A DNA stretch of 32,000 nucleotides from Thermofilum pendens Hrk 5 (GCF_000015225.1 NC_008698.1:60001-92000); one strand, 5' to 3'. Positions 1 through 23,285 are shown, counted from the first letter of the stretch. Numbers and translations are program-made. Notes: generated by a model not told the origin, from the sequence alone.

Positions 1-965
1 AAGAACGCTGCGAGGTGGCTGGGGATCCTGGCCTGGGACTCCCTGGGAACATTGCCGAGCACGGCTTCCATGTCTACGTCCCTCACAGCTTCGGGTGGAA
101 AGCCGTCGAAGGCTCTCAGCTCGAACTTCCTGGTAAAGTACCACCTCGCGACCACGCTTCTCCTAGTGTTTTTAACGAGCACAGCCGCCCTGTAGCCTCC
201 TTCAGCTTCGAACAGATTCTCGTCCACGAACGCCACGAACCTGCGTACCTCCCTTCTCTTCTCGCTCGCGGAGCTAGCCCTCCCGAACCATTCCAGGAAG
301 GATTGCAGGAAGTCGTCCAGGGAAACGTAGTTCTTGACCTGGAGCTTCTTGGGGGGCTTCTCCACGGGGCGCTCCGTGAGGAGCTCTACGAACCTTCTCA
401 AGTTCCTACCGGATGCCACCACGTAGTTCCACGGTACCTCCCACCAGTAGTCGTACCTGGAGAGCACATCCCACTCGTCGATCTTCGCTACCCTGTAGTT
501 AAGCCCGGCGTCAAAGTCTATTACAGCCTTCACGCGTATCTCCCCCCGCTCCAGCAAGCCGGCCACGGCGCTAGCCATAGATTTCCTCGAGATCAATGAC
601 CCAGGCACAACGATAAGCACGGTGTCTTTCGCTATCTCCTCACTGCCGGGAGGGTTCTTGGCAACCTCAAGGTAGCTCTTCGCGTTTTCGGGGTTGAAGC
701 TCGGGTTTAACCTTACCACTCGGTCATCGATGTAGCTACAGTTGTACTGGGAGGCAAGAACCTCGGACACAACTCCTCCCATGAATACGGTGTCCTCTCG
801 GGATACCTTTATCTCCGGGCAGGGCTTTTCGAAGCCTTCTTCGTCGAAACACCTCACCGGGTTCAGGTCATCGTCCAAGTATGCTTTAAGAACCTCGGGT
901 TCCTCTACTATCGCTATCGGTGACGGTGGCGCCTTTACGGGATCCTTGACATATATCACTTTCAT
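1..965 (-). CDS. hypothetical protein, C-terminus cut by window edge (>321 aa); fourth gene of the small-GTPase operon
   Basis: Hand translation of the minus strand from ATG 965 (MKVIYVKDPVKAPPSPIAIVEEPEVLKAYLDDDLNPVRCFDEEGFEKPCPEIKV...) stays open to position 1. It is absent from the ORF track because it has no in-window stop. The start lies 6 nt after the stop of the 277-aa gene. Composition is typical of a hyperthermophile protein. No family recognised. Confidence 0.6.
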   Translation of the reverse strand, partial: MKVIYVKDPVKAPPSPIAIVEEPEVLKAYLDDDLNPVRCFDEEGFEKPCPEIKVSREDTVFMGGVVSEVLASQYNCSYIDDRVVRLNPSFNPENAKSYLEVAKNPPGSEEIAKDTVLIVVPGSLISRKSMASAVAGLLERGEIRVKAVIDFDAGLNYRVAKIDEWDVLSRYDYWWEVPWNYVVASGRNLRRFVELLTERPVEKPPKKLQVKNYVSLDDFLQSFLEWFGRASSASEKRREVRRFVAFVDENLFEAEGGYRAAVLVKNTRRSVVARWYFTRKFELRAFDGFPPEAVRDVDMEAVLGNVPRESQARIPSHLAAF

Positions 966-971
966 TTCAGG

Positions 972-1805
972 CTACCTTTTCTGCGCCACGAAGGCTGAGA
1001 AAGGTCCCTTCGTAGAGTACCTTATCTTGGTGAAACGCGAGTCCTGCAGGTTGGTTGCCAGGGTTTCTGGGGGCTCGTAGTCCGGTATGCGCCAGGCGCG
1101 TAGGAGGCTACGCAAACCCTCCCTCTTGTTATCAGGCACTATGGCTATGAGCGTTCCTCCCTTCTTGAGGAGAGAGGACGCCATGCCCAGAATGGTTCTC
1201 CAGCCAAGGCTCATTGCGTCGAGCGTTGCGAAGACCAGGACGTCGACTGTACCGTTTAGGCTGGCTAGCCTATCCGCGTCTTCAAGCGGCACTACGTTGA
1301 GCTTTAGGTCGTACCTCCTGGAGTACTCGTCGTATATCTCCTTAAACGTGGAGTTGTACAGGAACCTCTTCTCGGTTATGATGCCCGGACTGCCGCTTAC
1401 ACGCTGGGATAGGCGTGAGAGGTAGACGGGCGCGACAGTGTTTACCTCGAAGAATGTTGCTCTCGGTGGGAGGCTTGCAATGTTGATGCTCCACTCGTAG
1501 AGGCTGTCTATTATGGAGATCTTCGTGAATAGCTCCGAGAAAAACGCGTAGAAGCGCCAGTCTCCCTCGGCGTAGGCCCTAGCGATGCTCGTTATCCCGT
1601 ACCTGAAAACTTCCTGGAACTCCTTTTCCTCTACCCCGAGGCCTCTGCTTTTCAGCCTCTCGGTAGCCGCTGTGAGCAACTGCGGTAGGTACTTTTCCAC
1701 GGGCGAGATCTCCTCCAGTTGCGGCGCTGAAGCTTTTTTGAGTTCGGAGAGGGCTTCGGGTAATAGGAGTATGGATATGTCGTGGTAGACCTCGGGGTAC
1801 GACAT
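972..1805 (-). CDS. hypothetical protein with a class I methyltransferase-like (Rossmann) C-terminal half and a degenerate glycine loop
   Basis: 277-aa ORF whose ATG overlaps the upstream stop (TGATG at 1803-1807). The C-terminal half has the strand/helix pattern of SAM methyltransferases (LKLNVVPLEDADRL, VDVLVFATLDAMS, LLKKGGTLIAIVP). The motif I position reads FFEVNTVAPVYLS instead of a GxGxG loop. Confidence 0.65.
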   Translation of the reverse strand: MSYPEVYHDISILLLPEALSELKKASAPQLEEISPVEKYLPQLLTAATERLKSRGLGVEEKEFQEVFRYGITSIARAYAEGDWRFYAFFSELFTKISIIDSLYEWSINIASLPPRATFFEVNTVAPVYLSRLSQRVSGSPGIITEKRFLYNSTFKEIYDEYSRRYDLKLNVVPLEDADRLASLNGTVDVLVFATLDAMSLGWRTILGMASSLLKKGGTLIAIVPDNKREGLRSLLRAWRIPDYEPPETLATNLQDSRFTKIRYSTKGPFSAFVAQKR

Positions 1806-2611
1806 CAGCCTATCACCAGGTCTATGACTCCTCTTCTTTGGAGCGAGAGGAGTGCCTCAACGTAGGAGAACATTATCTGGGGGTTCTCCAGGCCCAGAAT
1901 ATCGGAGACCTTTACGCTGGGTGCTTCGAGCACCCTGTTTACAAAGCCGCCGTTGTACTTCTCGAATATTATCGAGGGTCTGTACTTCCTCAGCAACATA
2001 GCCTCGGAGGGTCTAACCTTTACCGTTATGTTGGAAGCATTCGTGATGAGCCAGAAGACCTGCTTTATGTACTCGAATGGCTTCTCCTCTATGAGAACGT
2101 CGAGCAACCTTACAGCGTTAACGTAGTCCGTCGGCGAGTAAGAGTACGAGGAGTCGAGAGCCTCTGCGAGCAACTCCATCCAGGCTTTCGTAGTCTGGTA
2201 GCTCACATCCCTCCTGAAGTCCACCTCTAGGGAGGTCTCCCCCTTGTAGACCTTTATGCTACTCGAGGGGGGCTCGAAGTACCCGGTTACCCGGTAGTTA
2301 AGCCTCCTACTCTCTATGGTAAAACCGCCTATATTCCTGAGCCCCCTGAGCAGTTCGGGCTGGACTTTTACCTCGTATAGGCCCTTACCTCTAGCCTGGA
2401 GTAACGGGAAGACCCTGGTCCCCCTCTCGCCGCCGTTCCTGTCAACGTAAACTATGAACACGTGCGTCTCATGTTGAAAGGCTACCCCCGCGAGCCCGAG
2501 GGGGTTGTTCTGAGCCTCCTCGAGCAACTTGTCGTTAACCTCAACTACCTCTACCTGGCTGCAAGCGGGGCATCGAGCTCTAAACACGCGTTGTACTCCA
2601 AGCTTACTCAT
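1805..2611 (-). CDS. hypothetical protein (268 aa), single N-terminal CPAC knuckle; second gene of the small-GTPase operon
   Basis: The ATG overlaps the GTPase stop as ATGA (2608-2611). Sequence begins MSKLGVQRVFRARCPACSQVEVVEVNDK...GLAGVAFQHETHVFIVYVDRNGGERGTRVFP. No family recognised by eye. Confidence 0.7.
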   Translation of the reverse strand: MSKLGVQRVFRARCPACSQVEVVEVNDKLLEEAQNNPLGLAGVAFQHETHVFIVYVDRNGGERGTRVFPLLQARGKGLYEVKVQPELLRGLRNIGGFTIESRRLNYRVTGYFEPPSSSIKVYKGETSLEVDFRRDVSYQTTKAWMELLAEALDSSYSYSPTDYVNAVRLLDVLIEEKPFEYIKQVFWLITNASNITVKVRPSEAMLLRKYRPSIIFEKYNGGFVNRVLEAPSVKVSDILGLENPQIMFSYVEALLSLQRRGVIDLVIG

Positions 2612-3123
2612 ACTCTCACGCTCTGAACTATTGTTCTCAACAGGAAGAGGAAAGCCTCCTCCACCCTTGCACCAGTCCGGGCAGACACCTCGAAGTACTC
2701 TAGGAAGCCTTTCGATAGAGCATACTCGCGGGCCAGGTTGTAGGGAACTATTCTATACTCCTCTAGGTCCGCCTTGTTGCCAATCAGTATGCTGGGGACT
2801 TTCCCGAGTACACTCTCGGTGATTTTTCTCCACTCGTCGATCTCGAGGAAGGTCTCCTCCCTCGTTAAATCGAAGACATATACGACTCCTTTAGCCCCTT
2901 TCAGGAAGGCGGGAGCAAGGAAGCGGAACCTGTGCTCTCCTCCCAGATCCCATATTACCACGTGGAGCTCCCTTCCGTCTAGCTGTATCTTCCTGAAAAA
3001 GTGCTGGATCCCCACCGTTAGGCGTTCCTGCGGGTTGTACGAGCCCTCGACAAACTTTCTAGCAAGGCTCGTCTTACCTACACCCCCGGGACCACAAAGG
3101 GAAATTTTAACTGTTGCTATCAA
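2608..3123 (-). CDS. Ras/Rab-like small GTP-binding protein (171 aa)
   Basis: All G motifs are present: G1 GPGGVGKTS, switch I Thr in RLTVGI, G3 WDLGGE, G4 GNKADL, G5 VSAR. Apparent TTG start. No C-terminal Cys/CAAX. Confidence 0.9.
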   Translation of the reverse strand: MIATVKISLCGPGGVGKTSLARKFVEGSYNPQERLTVGIQHFFRKIQLDGRELHVVIWDLGGEHRFRFLAPAFLKGAKGVVYVFDLTREETFLEIDEWRKITESVLGKVPSILIGNKADLEEYRIVPYNLAREYALSKGFLEYFEVSARTGARVEEAFLFLLRTIVQSVRV

Positions 3124-3172
3124 CTCTCATCACACCGCTTCCAAGGCTGTAAGTAAGAGCCTAGCCTAGAAT

Positions 3173-3178
3173 AAAAAA
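3173..3178 (-). terminator. T6 run 14 nt downstream of the aminotransferase stop (archaeal oligo-T terminator candidate)
   Basis: Minus strand reads ...GGGTAAATTTTTTATTC... immediately after the stop at 3192. The same AT-rich block may also act as the TATA element for the GTPase operon about 50 nt further on. Confidence 0.4.
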
Positions 3179-3191
3179 TTTACCCTTATAT

Positions 3192-4388
3192 TCAGGACTC
3201 TATCCACTCCTTAATCCTCGCAATGCCCCTTACAATGTCGTTCTCACTCACAGCAAAGGAGAACCTTAGGTGCCCCTTCCCACCCTCCTTCGGGAAAGCT
3301 GTCCCAGGCAGAACCACTACGCCTCTCTCCTCTAGTAGCCTGTCCGCAAGCTCGCGCTCATTCTTCAGCCCTTTCTCCCGTATCACCTCAGTAAAGTCCG
3401 GGAATATGTAGAAAGCCCCCTCGGGCTTTACGACTTTTACGCCTTTTATCGAGAGAAACTCCCTGTATATGAGGTCCCTCCTCTTCCTGTACCCCTCGAG
3501 TATGGGTTTAAACCAAGACAAGCCTTCCTTCAGGGCCTTCGCAGCGGCTATCTGCTCGAAGGTTACCGGGCAGGAGTAGATATTGTTGGCGACCACTGAT
3601 AGCTTGGAGATCAGCTCTTTATTAGAGATGACGTAGCCCAGCCTCCAGCCCGTCATCCCAAAGGTCTTCGAAAAACCGTTCACGTAGTAGACGGCGTCGC
3701 GCCAACTCGACGTCTGCAAAGTAGAAAAGTGCTTTTTCTCGTAGACAAAGTGGTCGTATATCTCGTCCGACAGTACGACTATGCCACGCTTAGCCGAGAA
3801 ATCGACAAGCTCTTCCACGTCCCTTTGATCCATGGTGGTGCCCACGGGGTTCTCCGGGTAGTTTAGAACGATCATTCTAGTCTTGGGAGTTACGAGCTTC
3901 TCTACCTCTTCGAAGGTCACCTTGTAGCCGTTGCCCCTGTGGAGGCGCAGGAAGACAGGCTTGGCACCGGCGAAGCGTGCGACGGACTCATAGAGGGGGT
4001 AAGAGGGGTCAGGTATTATTACTTCGTCTCCGGGCTCCAACAGTGATATCATGGCCATAAAGATCGCTGATTTAGCTCCAACAGTAACGGCTACCTCCTC
4101 CGCCTTCACGTCCACTCCGTATTCCTCTGACACGAAGCTCGCTATAGCTTCCCGTAACTCCGGCATTCCCAGGCTTGGACCGTAGCCGTTGAACCCCTCG
4201 TCCATCGCCTTCTTAGCCTCAGATATCACGTGCGGCGGAGGCTGGAAGTCCGGTTGCCCTATACCGAAGGAGACGACGTCGACCCCTCTTCTTTTGAGCT
4301 CGAGGCTCCGCGCAAGGTAGACAAAAGCCTCCTCTGCTCCTAGCTGGGAGGCGGCTTTACTTAGGCGAAAGCTTGTTTCCCAGCCCAC
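3192..4388 (-). CDS. class I/II PLP-dependent aminotransferase (aspartate aminotransferase-like)
   Basis: 398 aa. PLP-lysine motif NGFSKTFGMTGWRLGY, LNYPENPVGT (NPxNPTG-like), and C-terminal LRFSFA. GTG start. Confidence 0.93.
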   Translation of the reverse strand: MGWETSFRLSKAASQLGAEEAFVYLARSLELKRRGVDVVSFGIGQPDFQPPPHVISEAKKAMDEGFNGYGPSLGMPELREAIASFVSEEYGVDVKAEEVAVTVGAKSAIFMAMISLLEPGDEVIIPDPSYPLYESVARFAGAKPVFLRLHRGNGYKVTFEEVEKLVTPKTRMIVLNYPENPVGTTMDQRDVEELVDFSAKRGIVVLSDEIYDHFVYEKKHFSTLQTSSWRDAVYYVNGFSKTFGMTGWRLGYVISNKELISKLSVVANNIYSCPVTFEQIAAAKALKEGLSWFKPILEGYRKRRDLIYREFLSIKGVKVVKPEGAFYIFPDFTEVIREKGLKNERELADRLLEERGVVVLPGTAFPKEGGKGHLRFSFAVSENDIVRGIARIKEWIES

Positions 4389-4538: not shown

Positions 4539-5021
4539 TTGGAGGAGCTGGTTAAAAGCGTCAAGGAAACACTCAATATGATCGATGCCGGGATTAGGGA
4601 CAAGAAGTTCCCGGAGCAGATGAGAATATACATAGAGCAGTTAGGAAGGAACCTGCGCCACTTCATAGAGGTAATAGAGGTTACAGGACGGGAGAACACT
4701 ATACAAAGCCCTATAAGCCCTAGCTCTAGGAGCGCGATGTTCAACTTGAGAAAAGCGTTCTACGCCACGCTTTCAAGAGAGATTAAGCAGAACAAGGTGG
4801 ACAAGGAGAGGAGTCTAGAGGAGTGGAGGAAAGTGGCATCTAGGATCATAGAGACCTTCGAGAAGAGGGGGTTGACCGAGGCTCCTTCAAAGATTATTCT
4901 CACCTACGAGATCAAGGAGGAGGACGGCAAGAGGTATATCGCTTTCCGGGATGCGCGTATACTCTACTTCGGGCTCGAAGGAATCTTGTCGGTCAGCCTG
5001 GTAGAGCAACCAGGTGCCTGA
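4539..5021 (+). CDS. hypothetical protein (160 aa)
   Basis: ORF with K/E-rich, protein-like composition (MEELVKSVKETLNMIDAGIRDKKFPEQMRIYIEQLGRNLRHF...). TATA box upstream. TTG start is uncertain; an ATG at 4577 is an alternative. No family recognised. Confidence 0.55.
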   Translation: MEELVKSVKETLNMIDAGIRDKKFPEQMRIYIEQLGRNLRHFIEVIEVTGRENTIQSPISPSSRSAMFNLRKAFYATLSREIKQNKVDKERSLEEWRKVASRIIETFEKRGLTEAPSKIILTYEIKEEDGKRYIAFRDARILYFGLEGILSVSLVEQPGA

Positions 5022-21928: not shown

Positions 21929-22816
21929 CTAGGACTGCTCCTTAGCGCTACGCGGGTCTAGCAGGGAGCTCCAAACCCTTTCGTAGTCCCTCTTCAGCCT
22001 TTCACGCGAGACGTGCGCATACACCTGCGTGGTGTTCAAGTTCGAGTGCCCCAGCAGCTCCTGTATCTCTCGAATATCCAGGCCGGCCGCCAGGCTTAGG
22101 GTCGCGAAGGAGTGCCTCAGAGTGTGAGGCGTGACTTTCTTCTCGATCCCCGCCTTCTCCTTTAGGCGCTTCAACACGCGTTCAACGGTGGTGTAGTGGA
22201 TGTGCTCGGCTGTCTCCGAGGGAAAGAGCCACTCAGAGTTAAGGCCCTTCATATAGCTCCTCAAGAGGTCGGCTACGTAGTCCGGGAAGTATACTAGCCT
22301 CTCCTTGGACCCCTTCCCTCTAACGCGGAGCGTCCTCTTTTCGAGGTCTACGTCGCTGACTCTTAGCGATACGAGCTCGCTGACGCGGAGACCCGTCGTG
22401 AAGAGTAGCAGGACTATTAGCTTGTCTCTCAGGTTCTCCGCGGCGTTCACCATTCTGAAGACTTCCTCCGCCTCGAGGTACCTTGGAAGCCTCTTTTCGC
22501 GCTTGGGCAGCTCGAAGCCGGCAATGTTGCCTCCAAGCCCCAAGAACTCCAGAAAGCGCTTCACGGCGACCGCCGCGGTGTATATGCTGTCCTTTTTCCA
22601 GCCTTTTCTCCTTAGATGCGCGAGGAAGAAGTCCACGTCGTACACCGTTACCTGCGATACGTGCCTGTCCCCCAGGAAGCGAACGAATTCTTCGAGGATG
22701 CTTTTAAAGCTCTTGATCGTTTTCTCCGAGCGGTTCCTCGCTACTAGGTGAGAAATGTAGAGATCTATTAACTCGTCGTTACTCCTTTCAGCGAAGGGAG
22801 CTTTCACACTGGACAT
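21929..22816 (-). CDS. xerA: tyrosine recombinase XerA
   Basis: 295 aa. N-terminal core-binding domain (LIDLYISHLVARNRSEKTIKSFKSILEEFVRFL). Catalytic domain with GLRVSELVSL (Arg), HTLRHSFATLSL (H-x-x-R) and LLGHSNLNTTQVYAHV (His, Tyr). Confidence 0.9.
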   Translation of the reverse strand: MSSVKAPFAERSNDELIDLYISHLVARNRSEKTIKSFKSILEEFVRFLGDRHVSQVTVYDVDFFLAHLRRKGWKKDSIYTAAVAVKRFLEFLGLGGNIAGFELPKREKRLPRYLEAEEVFRMVNAAENLRDKLIVLLLFTTGLRVSELVSLRVSDVDLEKRTLRVRGKGSKERLVYFPDYVADLLRSYMKGLNSEWLFPSETAEHIHYTTVERVLKRLKEKAGIEKKVTPHTLRHSFATLSLAAGLDIREIQELLGHSNLNTTQVYAHVSRERLKRDYERVWSSLLDPRSAKEQS

Positions 22817-22817
22817 A

Positions 22818-23285
22818 CTATATTCCTAGCTCCTCTAGCCTTCTAGCGTGCTTCTCCAGGTGGGCTGCGACGTAGATCGGCGAGCCTGTCCTCACGGCTA
22901 TCGCTATCCCGTCGCTCGGACGGGAATCCACGTTTATCTCTTCCACCTTCCCGTTCACCGTTCTTTTAAGGTAAATGGTGGCCGTGTAGACGCTGTTGTT
23001 TAGAAGGGCGTCTATCGAGACTTTCTCGACCTCTACCCCGAGAGCGTCGAGAATAGACACTATGAGGTCGTGAGTCATAGGTCTCTCGTACTTTACCCCC
23101 ATGAGAGCGCTTTGAATCGCGAGCCCCTCGTTTTCCCCTATGATTATAGGTAAAGCCTTATCCTTCCACTCAGCCGTCTCCAAGAGCAACAGGTATGCTG
23201 TTTGCTCGCCCTCAGGCTGGGGAACCTTGATAGGGTAGAGGCCCGCTATGTCGGCCTTGTAGTACTTTACTTCCTCCTCGCTCAA
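22818..23285 (-). CDS. bifunctional nuclease family protein (DUF151/BFN)
   Basis: LPIIIGENEGLAIQSAL, ERPMTHDLIVSIL and VDSRPSDGIAIAVRTGSPIYV are hallmark blocks of DUF151. The stop lies 1 nt before the xerA start. Confidence 0.85.
   Translation of the reverse strand: MSEEEVKYYKADIAGLYPIKVPQPEGEQTAYLLLLETAEWKDKALPIIIGENEGLAIQSALMGVKYERPMTHDLIVSILDALGVEVEKVSIDALLNNSVYTATIYLKRTVNGKVEEINVDSRPSDGIAIAVRTGSPIYVAAHLEKHARRLEELGI

Follow-up and report, generated by a model that had tools for sequence, protein, structure and literature searches.

Outside eukaryotes, Ras-like small GTPases are known chiefly through MglA/MglB, and the Rup branch is the presumed source of the Ras and Rab-type proteins of eukaryotes. 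We know of no experimentally characterised member of that branch and of few credible partners for its GTPases. [quoted passage not shown] Here, we describe a four-gene operon at one edge of a 32,000-nucleotide stretch of the Thermofilum pendens Hrk 5 genome (NC_008698.1:60001-92000; hereafter the window, with positions counted from its first letter). The operon is led by the small GTPase Tpen_0080, and we designate its genes and their products G1 to G4 in order of translation; the sequence motifs of the GTPase, which are also numbered G1 to G5, are always called motifs. The reading that we favour, while giving it about an even chance of being right, is that this operon, vertically inherited and confined to the Thermofilaceae clade, combines a Rup/Rab-like GTPase switch with its own dedicated partners. 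An earlier sequence-only reading of the window had proposed an undescribed GTPase-switch module in a crenarchaeon. What stands of that proposal is a conserved set of translationally coupled genes, headed by a Ras-superfamily GTPase that had been catalogued before. We found no description of its partner set in the literature searched, and no mention there of Tpen_0077 to Tpen_0080 by locus tag.

The GTPase gene (2608-3123, minus strand) encodes 171 residues from a TTG start. The product matches Pfam Ras with an E value of 2e-38 (131.9 bits, cut-off 21.6) and TIGR00231 at 6e-18, and its nucleotide-binding motifs are complete, as had been recognised before (GPGGVGKT, T36, DLGG, NKAD, and SAR for motifs G1 to G5). 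What had been missed is the residue after DxxG. In the G3 motif DLGGE (D59-E63; 2935-2949, minus strand), a glutamate replaces the catalytic glutamine of Ras and Rab, which is therefore absent. The closest PDB sequences are Rab18, a Thorarchaeota Rab, and Rab1, all at about 1e-30, and the alignment of WDLGGEHRFR with WDTAGQERFR of Rab18 puts Glu63 at the position of the catalytic glutamine (Ras Q61, Rab Q67). G61, G62, and E63, together with residues of switch I and switch II, are invariant across eight orthologues. The C terminus (...RTIVQSVRV) has no cysteine, the sole cysteine of the protein being C10, and the Rab prenylation cysteine motif is missing. On sequence grounds, G1 is a bona fide Ras-superfamily GTPase of the Rup/Ras-like branch; the missing glutamine does not exclude it from the Ras-superfamily Rup proteins, because Group 1 Rup GTPases lack this residue as well.

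Tpen_0080 has been listed twice before. In their supplement, Wuichet and Sogaard-Andersen (2014; PMC4316618) list the 171-residue protein as an unclassified Rup ('Rup Unc'), give no neighbouring partners for it, and assign T. pendens a separate MglA/MglB pair (Tpen_0253). Surkont and Pereira-Leal (2016; PMC4915359) count it among five non-Lokiarchaeal "Rab-like" archaeal GTPases, with no discussion of gene context. Further small GTPases with glutamate for the catalytic glutamine (WD[LI]GGE) occur in metagenome contigs of low guanine-plus-cytosine (GC) content (27-30%), and each contig pair has its own conserved neighbour. In one pair (L036:1378-3435 and L038:3506-5513), this is a cysteine-rich protein of 458-473 residues upstream of the GTPase; in the other (L032:124-1659 and L034:1190-2494), it is a 326-residue protein with a weak TrmB-type winged helix downstream. 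Both are unrelated to G2, and an hhalign comparison of G2 with the winged helix-turn-helix partner in L032 gave no relation. The accession of L038, LAZR01000366, presumably belongs to a Lokiarchaeum assembly.

All four genes lie on the minus strand, and the junctions proposed by the sequence-only reading are exact in the window. G1 and G2 (1805-2611; 268 residues) share an ATGA at 2608-2611, G2 and G3 (972-1805; 277 residues) share a TGATG at 1803-1807, and a 6-nucleotide spacer (966-971) separates G3 from G4. The fourth gene leaves the window at its edge after its first 321 codons (1-965), as had been noted; an exact-protein look-up, which recovered these genes from other assemblies of T. pendens, now completes it at 350 residues (L001:3055-4107). 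Because G4 terminates convergently against a gene for an NAD-binding dehydrogenase, the operon comprises four genes and no more. The 3' ends of these two convergent genes overlap by 4 nucleotides (L001:4104-4107), so no intergenic terminator is possible between them. Hydrophobic segments are found in none of the four operon proteins, all of which are soluble.

To follow the operon across genomes, we drew on species-representative genomes, exact look-ups of G2 homologues, and a metagenome scan with GTPase-specific patterns, and ran tblastn and hidden Markov model searches over all 45 loci retrieved. In 30 of 31 loci (locus GC content 35-64%), the gene that immediately follows that of the GTPase is G2. 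Among GTPases at least 48% identical, G2 comes next wherever the contig extends, with locus L016 as the single exception. The order G1-G2-G3-G4 is present in Thermofilum, in Infirmifilum, and in Thermofilaceae loci from metagenome-assembled genomes and metagenomes. The overlaps are conserved as well: G1 and G2 overlap in 21 of 24 distinct loci, 14 of them with the 4-nucleotide form, and G2 and G3 in 21 of 22, most commonly by 1 or 4 nucleotides. G3 and G4 overlap in none of the loci, and their spacer is mostly 5-42 nucleotides long. At L025 and L027, the flanks differ and the aminotransferase gene found upstream in T. pendens is not there, yet G1, G2, and G3 are contiguous. Identity to the T. 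pendens proteins is 62-82% for the aminotransferase, 48-75% for G1, 23-72% for G2, 27-51% for G3, and 30-50% for G4. The G1 tree looks vertical, and the locus is single-copy and set among housekeeping genes.

None of the three partners, taken singly or as alignments of orthologues, matches a curated family in Pfam, NCBIfam, PADLOC, or PHROGs, which agrees with their earlier description as proteins outside recognised families. A word-indexed search of 5.8 billion proteins returned 11 clusters of G2 relatives, each at 97-100% query coverage, and every cluster with a source name is assigned to Thermofilum; several family members give zinc-ribbon Pfam matches below threshold. In an alignment of 13 sequences (identity down to 22%), the residues that never vary are C14, P15, C17, P37, G39, H47, H50, Y55, D57, G60, D171, and R260, so that the CPAC knuckle seen by the sequence-only reading is real. 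T. pendens G2 has two cysteines and two histidines in total, C14, C17, H47, and H50. Because these are all invariant, a Cys2-His2 metal site is very likely; the putative site and the hairpin that follows it (Y55-x-D57-x-x-G60) are encoded at 2462-2572 on the minus strand.

The AlphaFold model of G2 is confident (predicted local distance difference test score, pLDDT, 85.9; predicted template modelling score, pTM, 0.66). It begins with a beta-beta-alpha-beta-beta-beta unit, in which both knuckles and the conserved YxDxxGxERG hairpin are located, followed by a second beta-rich unit and a helical region. By order of secondary structure, the C-terminal helix-helix-strand unit of the model resembles a winged helix. 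Foldseek gave a best E value of 0.19 in the PDB and 0.013 in the viral database BFVD, with query template modelling (TM) scores of at most 0.23; the modelled fold thus resembles no solved structure at the sensitivity used. PCNA, AP-3 sigma, and adenylylsulfate reductase beta appeared among the non-significant Foldseek matches and were judged noise, as were the RRM and Brix matches among PDB sequences. Assignments of G2 as a Roadblock/longin, Mss4-like, ArfGAP zinc finger, Trm112, or TBC protein were dropped, since there was no match to any of them. At two loci of a deep-branching lineage (L011:4101-4907 and L012:5198-6004), the G2 frame is intact, has no ATG, GTG, or TTG until codon 94, and is shortened by gene callers to 175 residues. 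An ATA there overlaps the TAA stop of the GTPase gene as ATAA, in the geometry of ATGA and after GGGGGTG, and G2 at these loci probably starts at this non-canonical ATA via termination-reinitiation.

The sequence-only reading had described G3 as a protein with a methyltransferase-like Rossmann half, and profile matches in the PDB now bear this out. A PDB profile search made before the deep-branching orthologues were included was uninformative. With P0048 and the proteins of L025 and L027 added, the profile returned 14 PDB matches (E values up to 10), 12 of which are class I S-adenosylmethionine (SAM) methyltransferases, with CmoM (4htf/8joz; 2.7e-5), 1wzn (0.015), and 2yqz (0.054) as the best. 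The alignment to 1wzn spans profile positions 110-223, from motif I through beta5, and the alignment and PDB profile matches together place the Rossmann domain at residues ~110-277 (975-1478, minus strand). The UniRef name of G3 agrees with this assignment. In Pfam and NCBIfam, nothing scored above the cut-off (Methyltransf_23 at 0.063 and RrnaAD at 0.14 were best), and the N-terminal ~110 residues have no family match. When 1.84 billion representatives were searched exhaustively with a HMMER profile, seven relatives came up, six of them full-length (about the length of G3) and one a 98-residue fragment, with no bridge to known methyltransferases among the seven. An hhalign comparison of G3 with the window's own Methyltransf_11 protein was uninformative.

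Judged from these profiles, G3 is a divergent class I SAM-methyltransferase fold with an additional N-terminal domain. The T. pendens motif I reads FEVNTVAP and that of most orthologues E-h-N-x-x-A-P; the glycine-rich, SAM-binding hhDxGxGxG pattern is absent from both. The deep-branching P0048 alone keeps a glycine-rich motif I, VDLYGGPG, followed by an acidic beta2 end, and its retention there suggests that the family descends from an active methyltransferase. Cofactor binding may have been lost or altered in the Thermofilum proteins. Because the SAM loop is degenerate in T. pendens and glycine-rich in the deep lineage, G3 may have turned into a scaffold rather than an enzyme in Thermofilum. 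At one locus (L026:6313-8206), G3 continues into G4 to give a 469-residue product (UniRef A0A7C3SLB0), followed by a frame shift; the likeliest cause of this read-through is an error of assembly or sequencing and not a true fusion, because the close relative L008 has separate genes.

G4 carries the UniRef name 'NurA domain-containing protein', which came to light in a profile search with fused G3 and G4 (at least three matches) that also returned full-length G4. Seven G4 orthologues have no match to any Pfam family, NurA included, even at an E value of 10, and the G4 profile found nothing in the PDB beyond noise (a nanobody) and no NurA chain. The 50 best Foldseek matches do not include NurA either, and we rejected this identity as a label that was not reproduced. 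The best AlphaFold model consists of three alpha/beta modules, two of which start with three-stranded meanders. About 42 of the 50 best Foldseek matches to it have an RNase-H-like fold, none of them significant; they comprise about 22 ASKHA ATPases and about 18 Argonaute/PIWI proteins, retroviral RNase H, and Mu transposase. G4 therefore probably has an RNase-H-like fold. The invariant residues of G4 include D31, E68, E194, E198-R-P-V, R238, N266, R269, R274-W275, D287, P290-P291, D335, K340, and R343-W344. No invariant DEDD-type catalytic set is evident, and an intact site of this type is not established, because the aspartate after strand 242-248 is lost in L011. A gene for a HerA-type ATPase was found neither in the window nor at any locus examined.

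If the operon is a GTPase switch with dedicated partners, G1 and G2 would be made in fixed proportion and would bind as a complex. Because G1 has no catalytic glutamine of its own, GTP hydrolysis, or the stabilising of the GTP state, would depend on a partner, for which G2 is the likeliest candidate. The nucleotide state of the G1-G2 complex would then gate G3 and G4, either their recruitment or their activity; the target of these two would be RNA, DNA, or nucleoprotein, as their folds hint. With a methyltransferase fold and an RNase-H-like fold among them, the partners resemble enzymes that act on nucleic acids or in modification more than classical GTPase regulators. Pfam and Foldseek gave no TBC, DENN, longin, or Roadblock signal for them, and no MglB or LAMTOR structure was among the PDB matches of G2 and G4 in Foldseek. 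The earlier statement that no partner is an obvious Roadblock protein is thus upheld, by Pfam for G2 to G4 and their orthologues and by Foldseek against the PDB for G2 and G4. The suggestion that structure comparison of the partners might reveal a GAP-like fold (GAP, GTPase-activating protein) fared less well: no regulator fold was matched for G2 or G4, and what emerged is a strong enrichment of RNase-H-like folds among the non-significant matches of G4. The specific roles of G2 as a GAP, G3 as an active enzyme, and G4 as a nuclease each merit less confidence than the module as a whole. We regard it as rather unlikely that G2 represents a new class of regulator or effector (GAP, guanine nucleotide exchange factor, or co-switch) of a Ras-superfamily GTPase on an unseen Cys2-His2 zinc fold and that the operon is a GTPase-gated machine for modifying or processing nucleic acids, with G3 and G4 as its subunits. 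If true, this would be a way of wiring a Rab-like switch for which no domain of life offers a described example.

Several observations weigh against a dedicated switch module. Across the Thermofilaceae, the whole neighbourhood is syntenic, from GlmS through a 160-residue open reading frame, the aminotransferase, and the operon to the dehydrogenase, and conservation of order inside this family is therefore weak evidence alone. Gene order, which the sequence-only reading had offered as a check, is kept in about 30 loci of Thermofilaceae and deeper relatives, but G4 does not adjoin the other genes in two deep lineages, and G2 to G4 are missing beside the GTPase of L016. In the deep lineages, represented by L025 and L027, unrelated genes stand at the position of G4 (a DUF3267 membrane protein and a PAC2 protein). 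Because these loci keep G1-G2-G3 while G4 is replaced, the core of the operon consists of G1-G2-G3, to which Thermofilaceae proper and the L011/L012 lineage have added G4. L016 (1398-3798; GC content of the contig 66%) has a GTPase that is 67% identical to Tpen_0080 and that a neighbour-joining tree places within the Thermofilum clade. After it comes a convergent, canonical Methyltransf_11 gene, and the divergent three-gene unit before it includes a Roadblock/LC7 protein (Pfam 1e-8); only at this exceptional locus is a Robl_LC7 gene near the GTPase. The L016 GTPase may be a paralogue, or else an orthologue that has been rewired. The G2 hairpin has no strictly invariant arginine or glutamine, R63 and R66 each being lost in one lineage, and a finger mechanism for G2 is therefore not arguable from sequence. 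For G4, the best model reaches a pLDDT of 85.6 and a pTM of 0.85, the other four models reach only 43-70, and Foldseek found nothing in the PDB better than an E value of 0.01, with TM scores of at most 0.18.

Among the alternatives, an RNA-modification or ribosome/tRNA-maturation set overlaps with the switch reading, and we consider it possible, though unlikely. G3 would then be an RNA methyltransferase activated by a Trm112-like G2, the GTPase would act in assembly or as a checkpoint, and G4 would be an RNase-H-like processing or binding subunit. Ribosome biogenesis commonly combines GTPases, methyltransferases, and nucleases, and the operon is single-copy, vertical, and placed amid housekeeping genes. 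G2 has a zinc knuckle, but neither Pfam nor Foldseek gives it a Trm112 match; the top profile match of G3 is a tRNA cmo5U methyltransferase, CmoM, and P0048 has a weak RrnaAD match over motif I, but the CmoM match is confined to the generic beta4-beta5 region and the SAM loop is degenerate in most G3 members. In addition, factors limited to one family rarely serve universal processes. A restriction-modification-like defence or conflict system, with a nucleoside triphosphatase (NTPase) switch controlling G4 as nuclease and G3 as modification enzyme or sensor and with G2 as DNA-binding specificity factor, appears improbable to us. It would account for an operon in which an NTPase meets a methyltransferase fold and a protein that is RNase-H-like or labelled NurA, for the winged-helix-like unit that ends G2, and for the much faster divergence of G3 and G4 than of the aminotransferase. 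Yet PADLOC gave 0 matches and PHROGs nothing meaningful, tblastn of 50,697 phage records found no match, and no relatives occur on IMG/VR contigs. These results, together with the metabolic neighbourhood and the vertical-looking tree of a locus that is fixed, single-copy, and outside any island, make a mobile defence island unlikely. The degenerate motif I of G3, the absence of G4 beside the core in some lineages, and the lack of an evident invariant DEDD-type set in G4 also count against defence.

Two further explanations have less in their favour. MglA-GTP binds MreB, and by analogy the GTPase could position an actin-fold (ASKHA-like) G4 as part of a polarity or cytoskeleton module in these very thin filamentous cells. 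The ASKHA ATPases among the best 50 Foldseek matches of G4 (DnaK nucleotide-binding domain, Ppx/GppA, TsaB, and FtsA) include ranks 2-5. All of these matches are non-significant, however, and G4 lacks the glycine-rich phosphate-binding motifs of ASKHA ATPases, does not adjoin the core in two lineages, and would be serving a cell that already has an MglA/MglB pair elsewhere; we hold a polarity module to be very improbable. Least probable in our view is that the four genes are neighbours through inherited synteny only and do no joint work. The syntenic region from GlmS to the dehydrogenase is what such an explanation would predict for the Thermofilaceae, but it does not sit well with stop/start overlaps kept at nearly all distinct loci, with G1-G2-G3 staying together despite changed flanks, or with relatives of G2 and G3 that are found nowhere but beside this GTPase. 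A GTPase switch with dedicated partners remains our preferred account of the operon.

Upstream of the operon, on the same strand, lies an aspartate-aminotransferase-type gene (3192-4388), 68 nucleotides from G1. Inside this gap, between the aminotransferase stop and G1, the A/T-rich box TAAATTTTTTATT (3170-3182, minus strand) is a candidate archaeal TATA element, read from sequence only, and a GGTG is positioned 10-13 nucleotides before the TTG start of G1. The box and the GGTG suggest a promoter and a ribosome-binding site of the operon's own. Divergent from the aminotransferase gene is the 160-residue open reading frame (4539-5021, plus strand), which has no Pfam match and is conserved in place at every Thermofilaceae locus examined, with an annotated length there of 155-173 residues. 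The remaining window encodes ordinary metabolism, including GlmS, sugar-nucleotide enzymes, UbiD, aldehyde:ferredoxin oxidoreductase, and enolase, among others. It also encodes, at 21929-23285 on the minus strand, a tyrosine recombinase (Phage_integrase 4e-47), possibly of the chromosomal XerA type, directly followed by a bifunctional-nuclease-domain protein; no further signs of a mobile element were seen close by.

The operon supplies a defined, testable partner set for one Rab-like archaeal GTPase, from a cultivated organism with thermostable proteins. Through G2, a new means of completing the active site of a GTPase without its catalytic glutamine could come to light, and G3 and G4 would tie a Ras-type switch to methyltransferase- and RNase-H-like proteins, not to membranes or motility. 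Should the proteins not interact, they would still represent three orphan families confined to one archaeal family.

Several known systems share features with the operon. In Trm112-methyltransferase holoenzymes, a zinc-knuckle protein accompanies a class I methyltransferase, a possible analogy for G2 and G3; unlike Trm112, G2 has 268 residues with extra domains, a Cys2-His2 rather than a Cys4 arrangement, and no Pfam or Foldseek match. An adjacent NTPase drives the RNase-H-like nuclease NurA, and the UniRef name of G4, which we did not reproduce, points to the HerA-NurA pair, but the NTPase beside G4 is a small GTPase and not a HerA hexamer. TBC GAPs provide the catalytic glutamine in trans, an arrangement that would fit a GTPase lacking this residue. 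Eukaryotic and Asgard Rabs are the top PDB sequence matches of G1, which has previously been classed as Rab-like (PMC4915359); in contrast to them, it has no prenylation cysteine, carries glutamate for glutamine, and shows no link to membranes. As in MglA-MglB, where the often co-transcribed partner is needed for the GTPase cycle, a small single-domain GTPase stands beside a dedicated partner. However, G1 keeps the aspartate of the G3 motif, which places it on the Rup/Ras-like side and not with MglA, none of G2 to G4 is a Roadblock protein, and the operon holds two further partners with enzyme-like folds. The Group 1 Rup cluster likewise has four genes, uncharacterised partners, and a Rup GTPase that lacks the catalytic glutamine of the G3 motif, but it is bacterial, and the GTPase is accompanied there by a coiled-coil protein, by a membrane/OmpA protein, and by either a diguanylate cyclase or a histidine kinase. 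Because the defining partners of both systems were looked for and are absent, the operon belongs to neither MglA/MglB nor Group 1 Rup; its own partners are all soluble and comprise a zinc-knuckle, a methyltransferase-fold, and a probable RNase-H-like protein.

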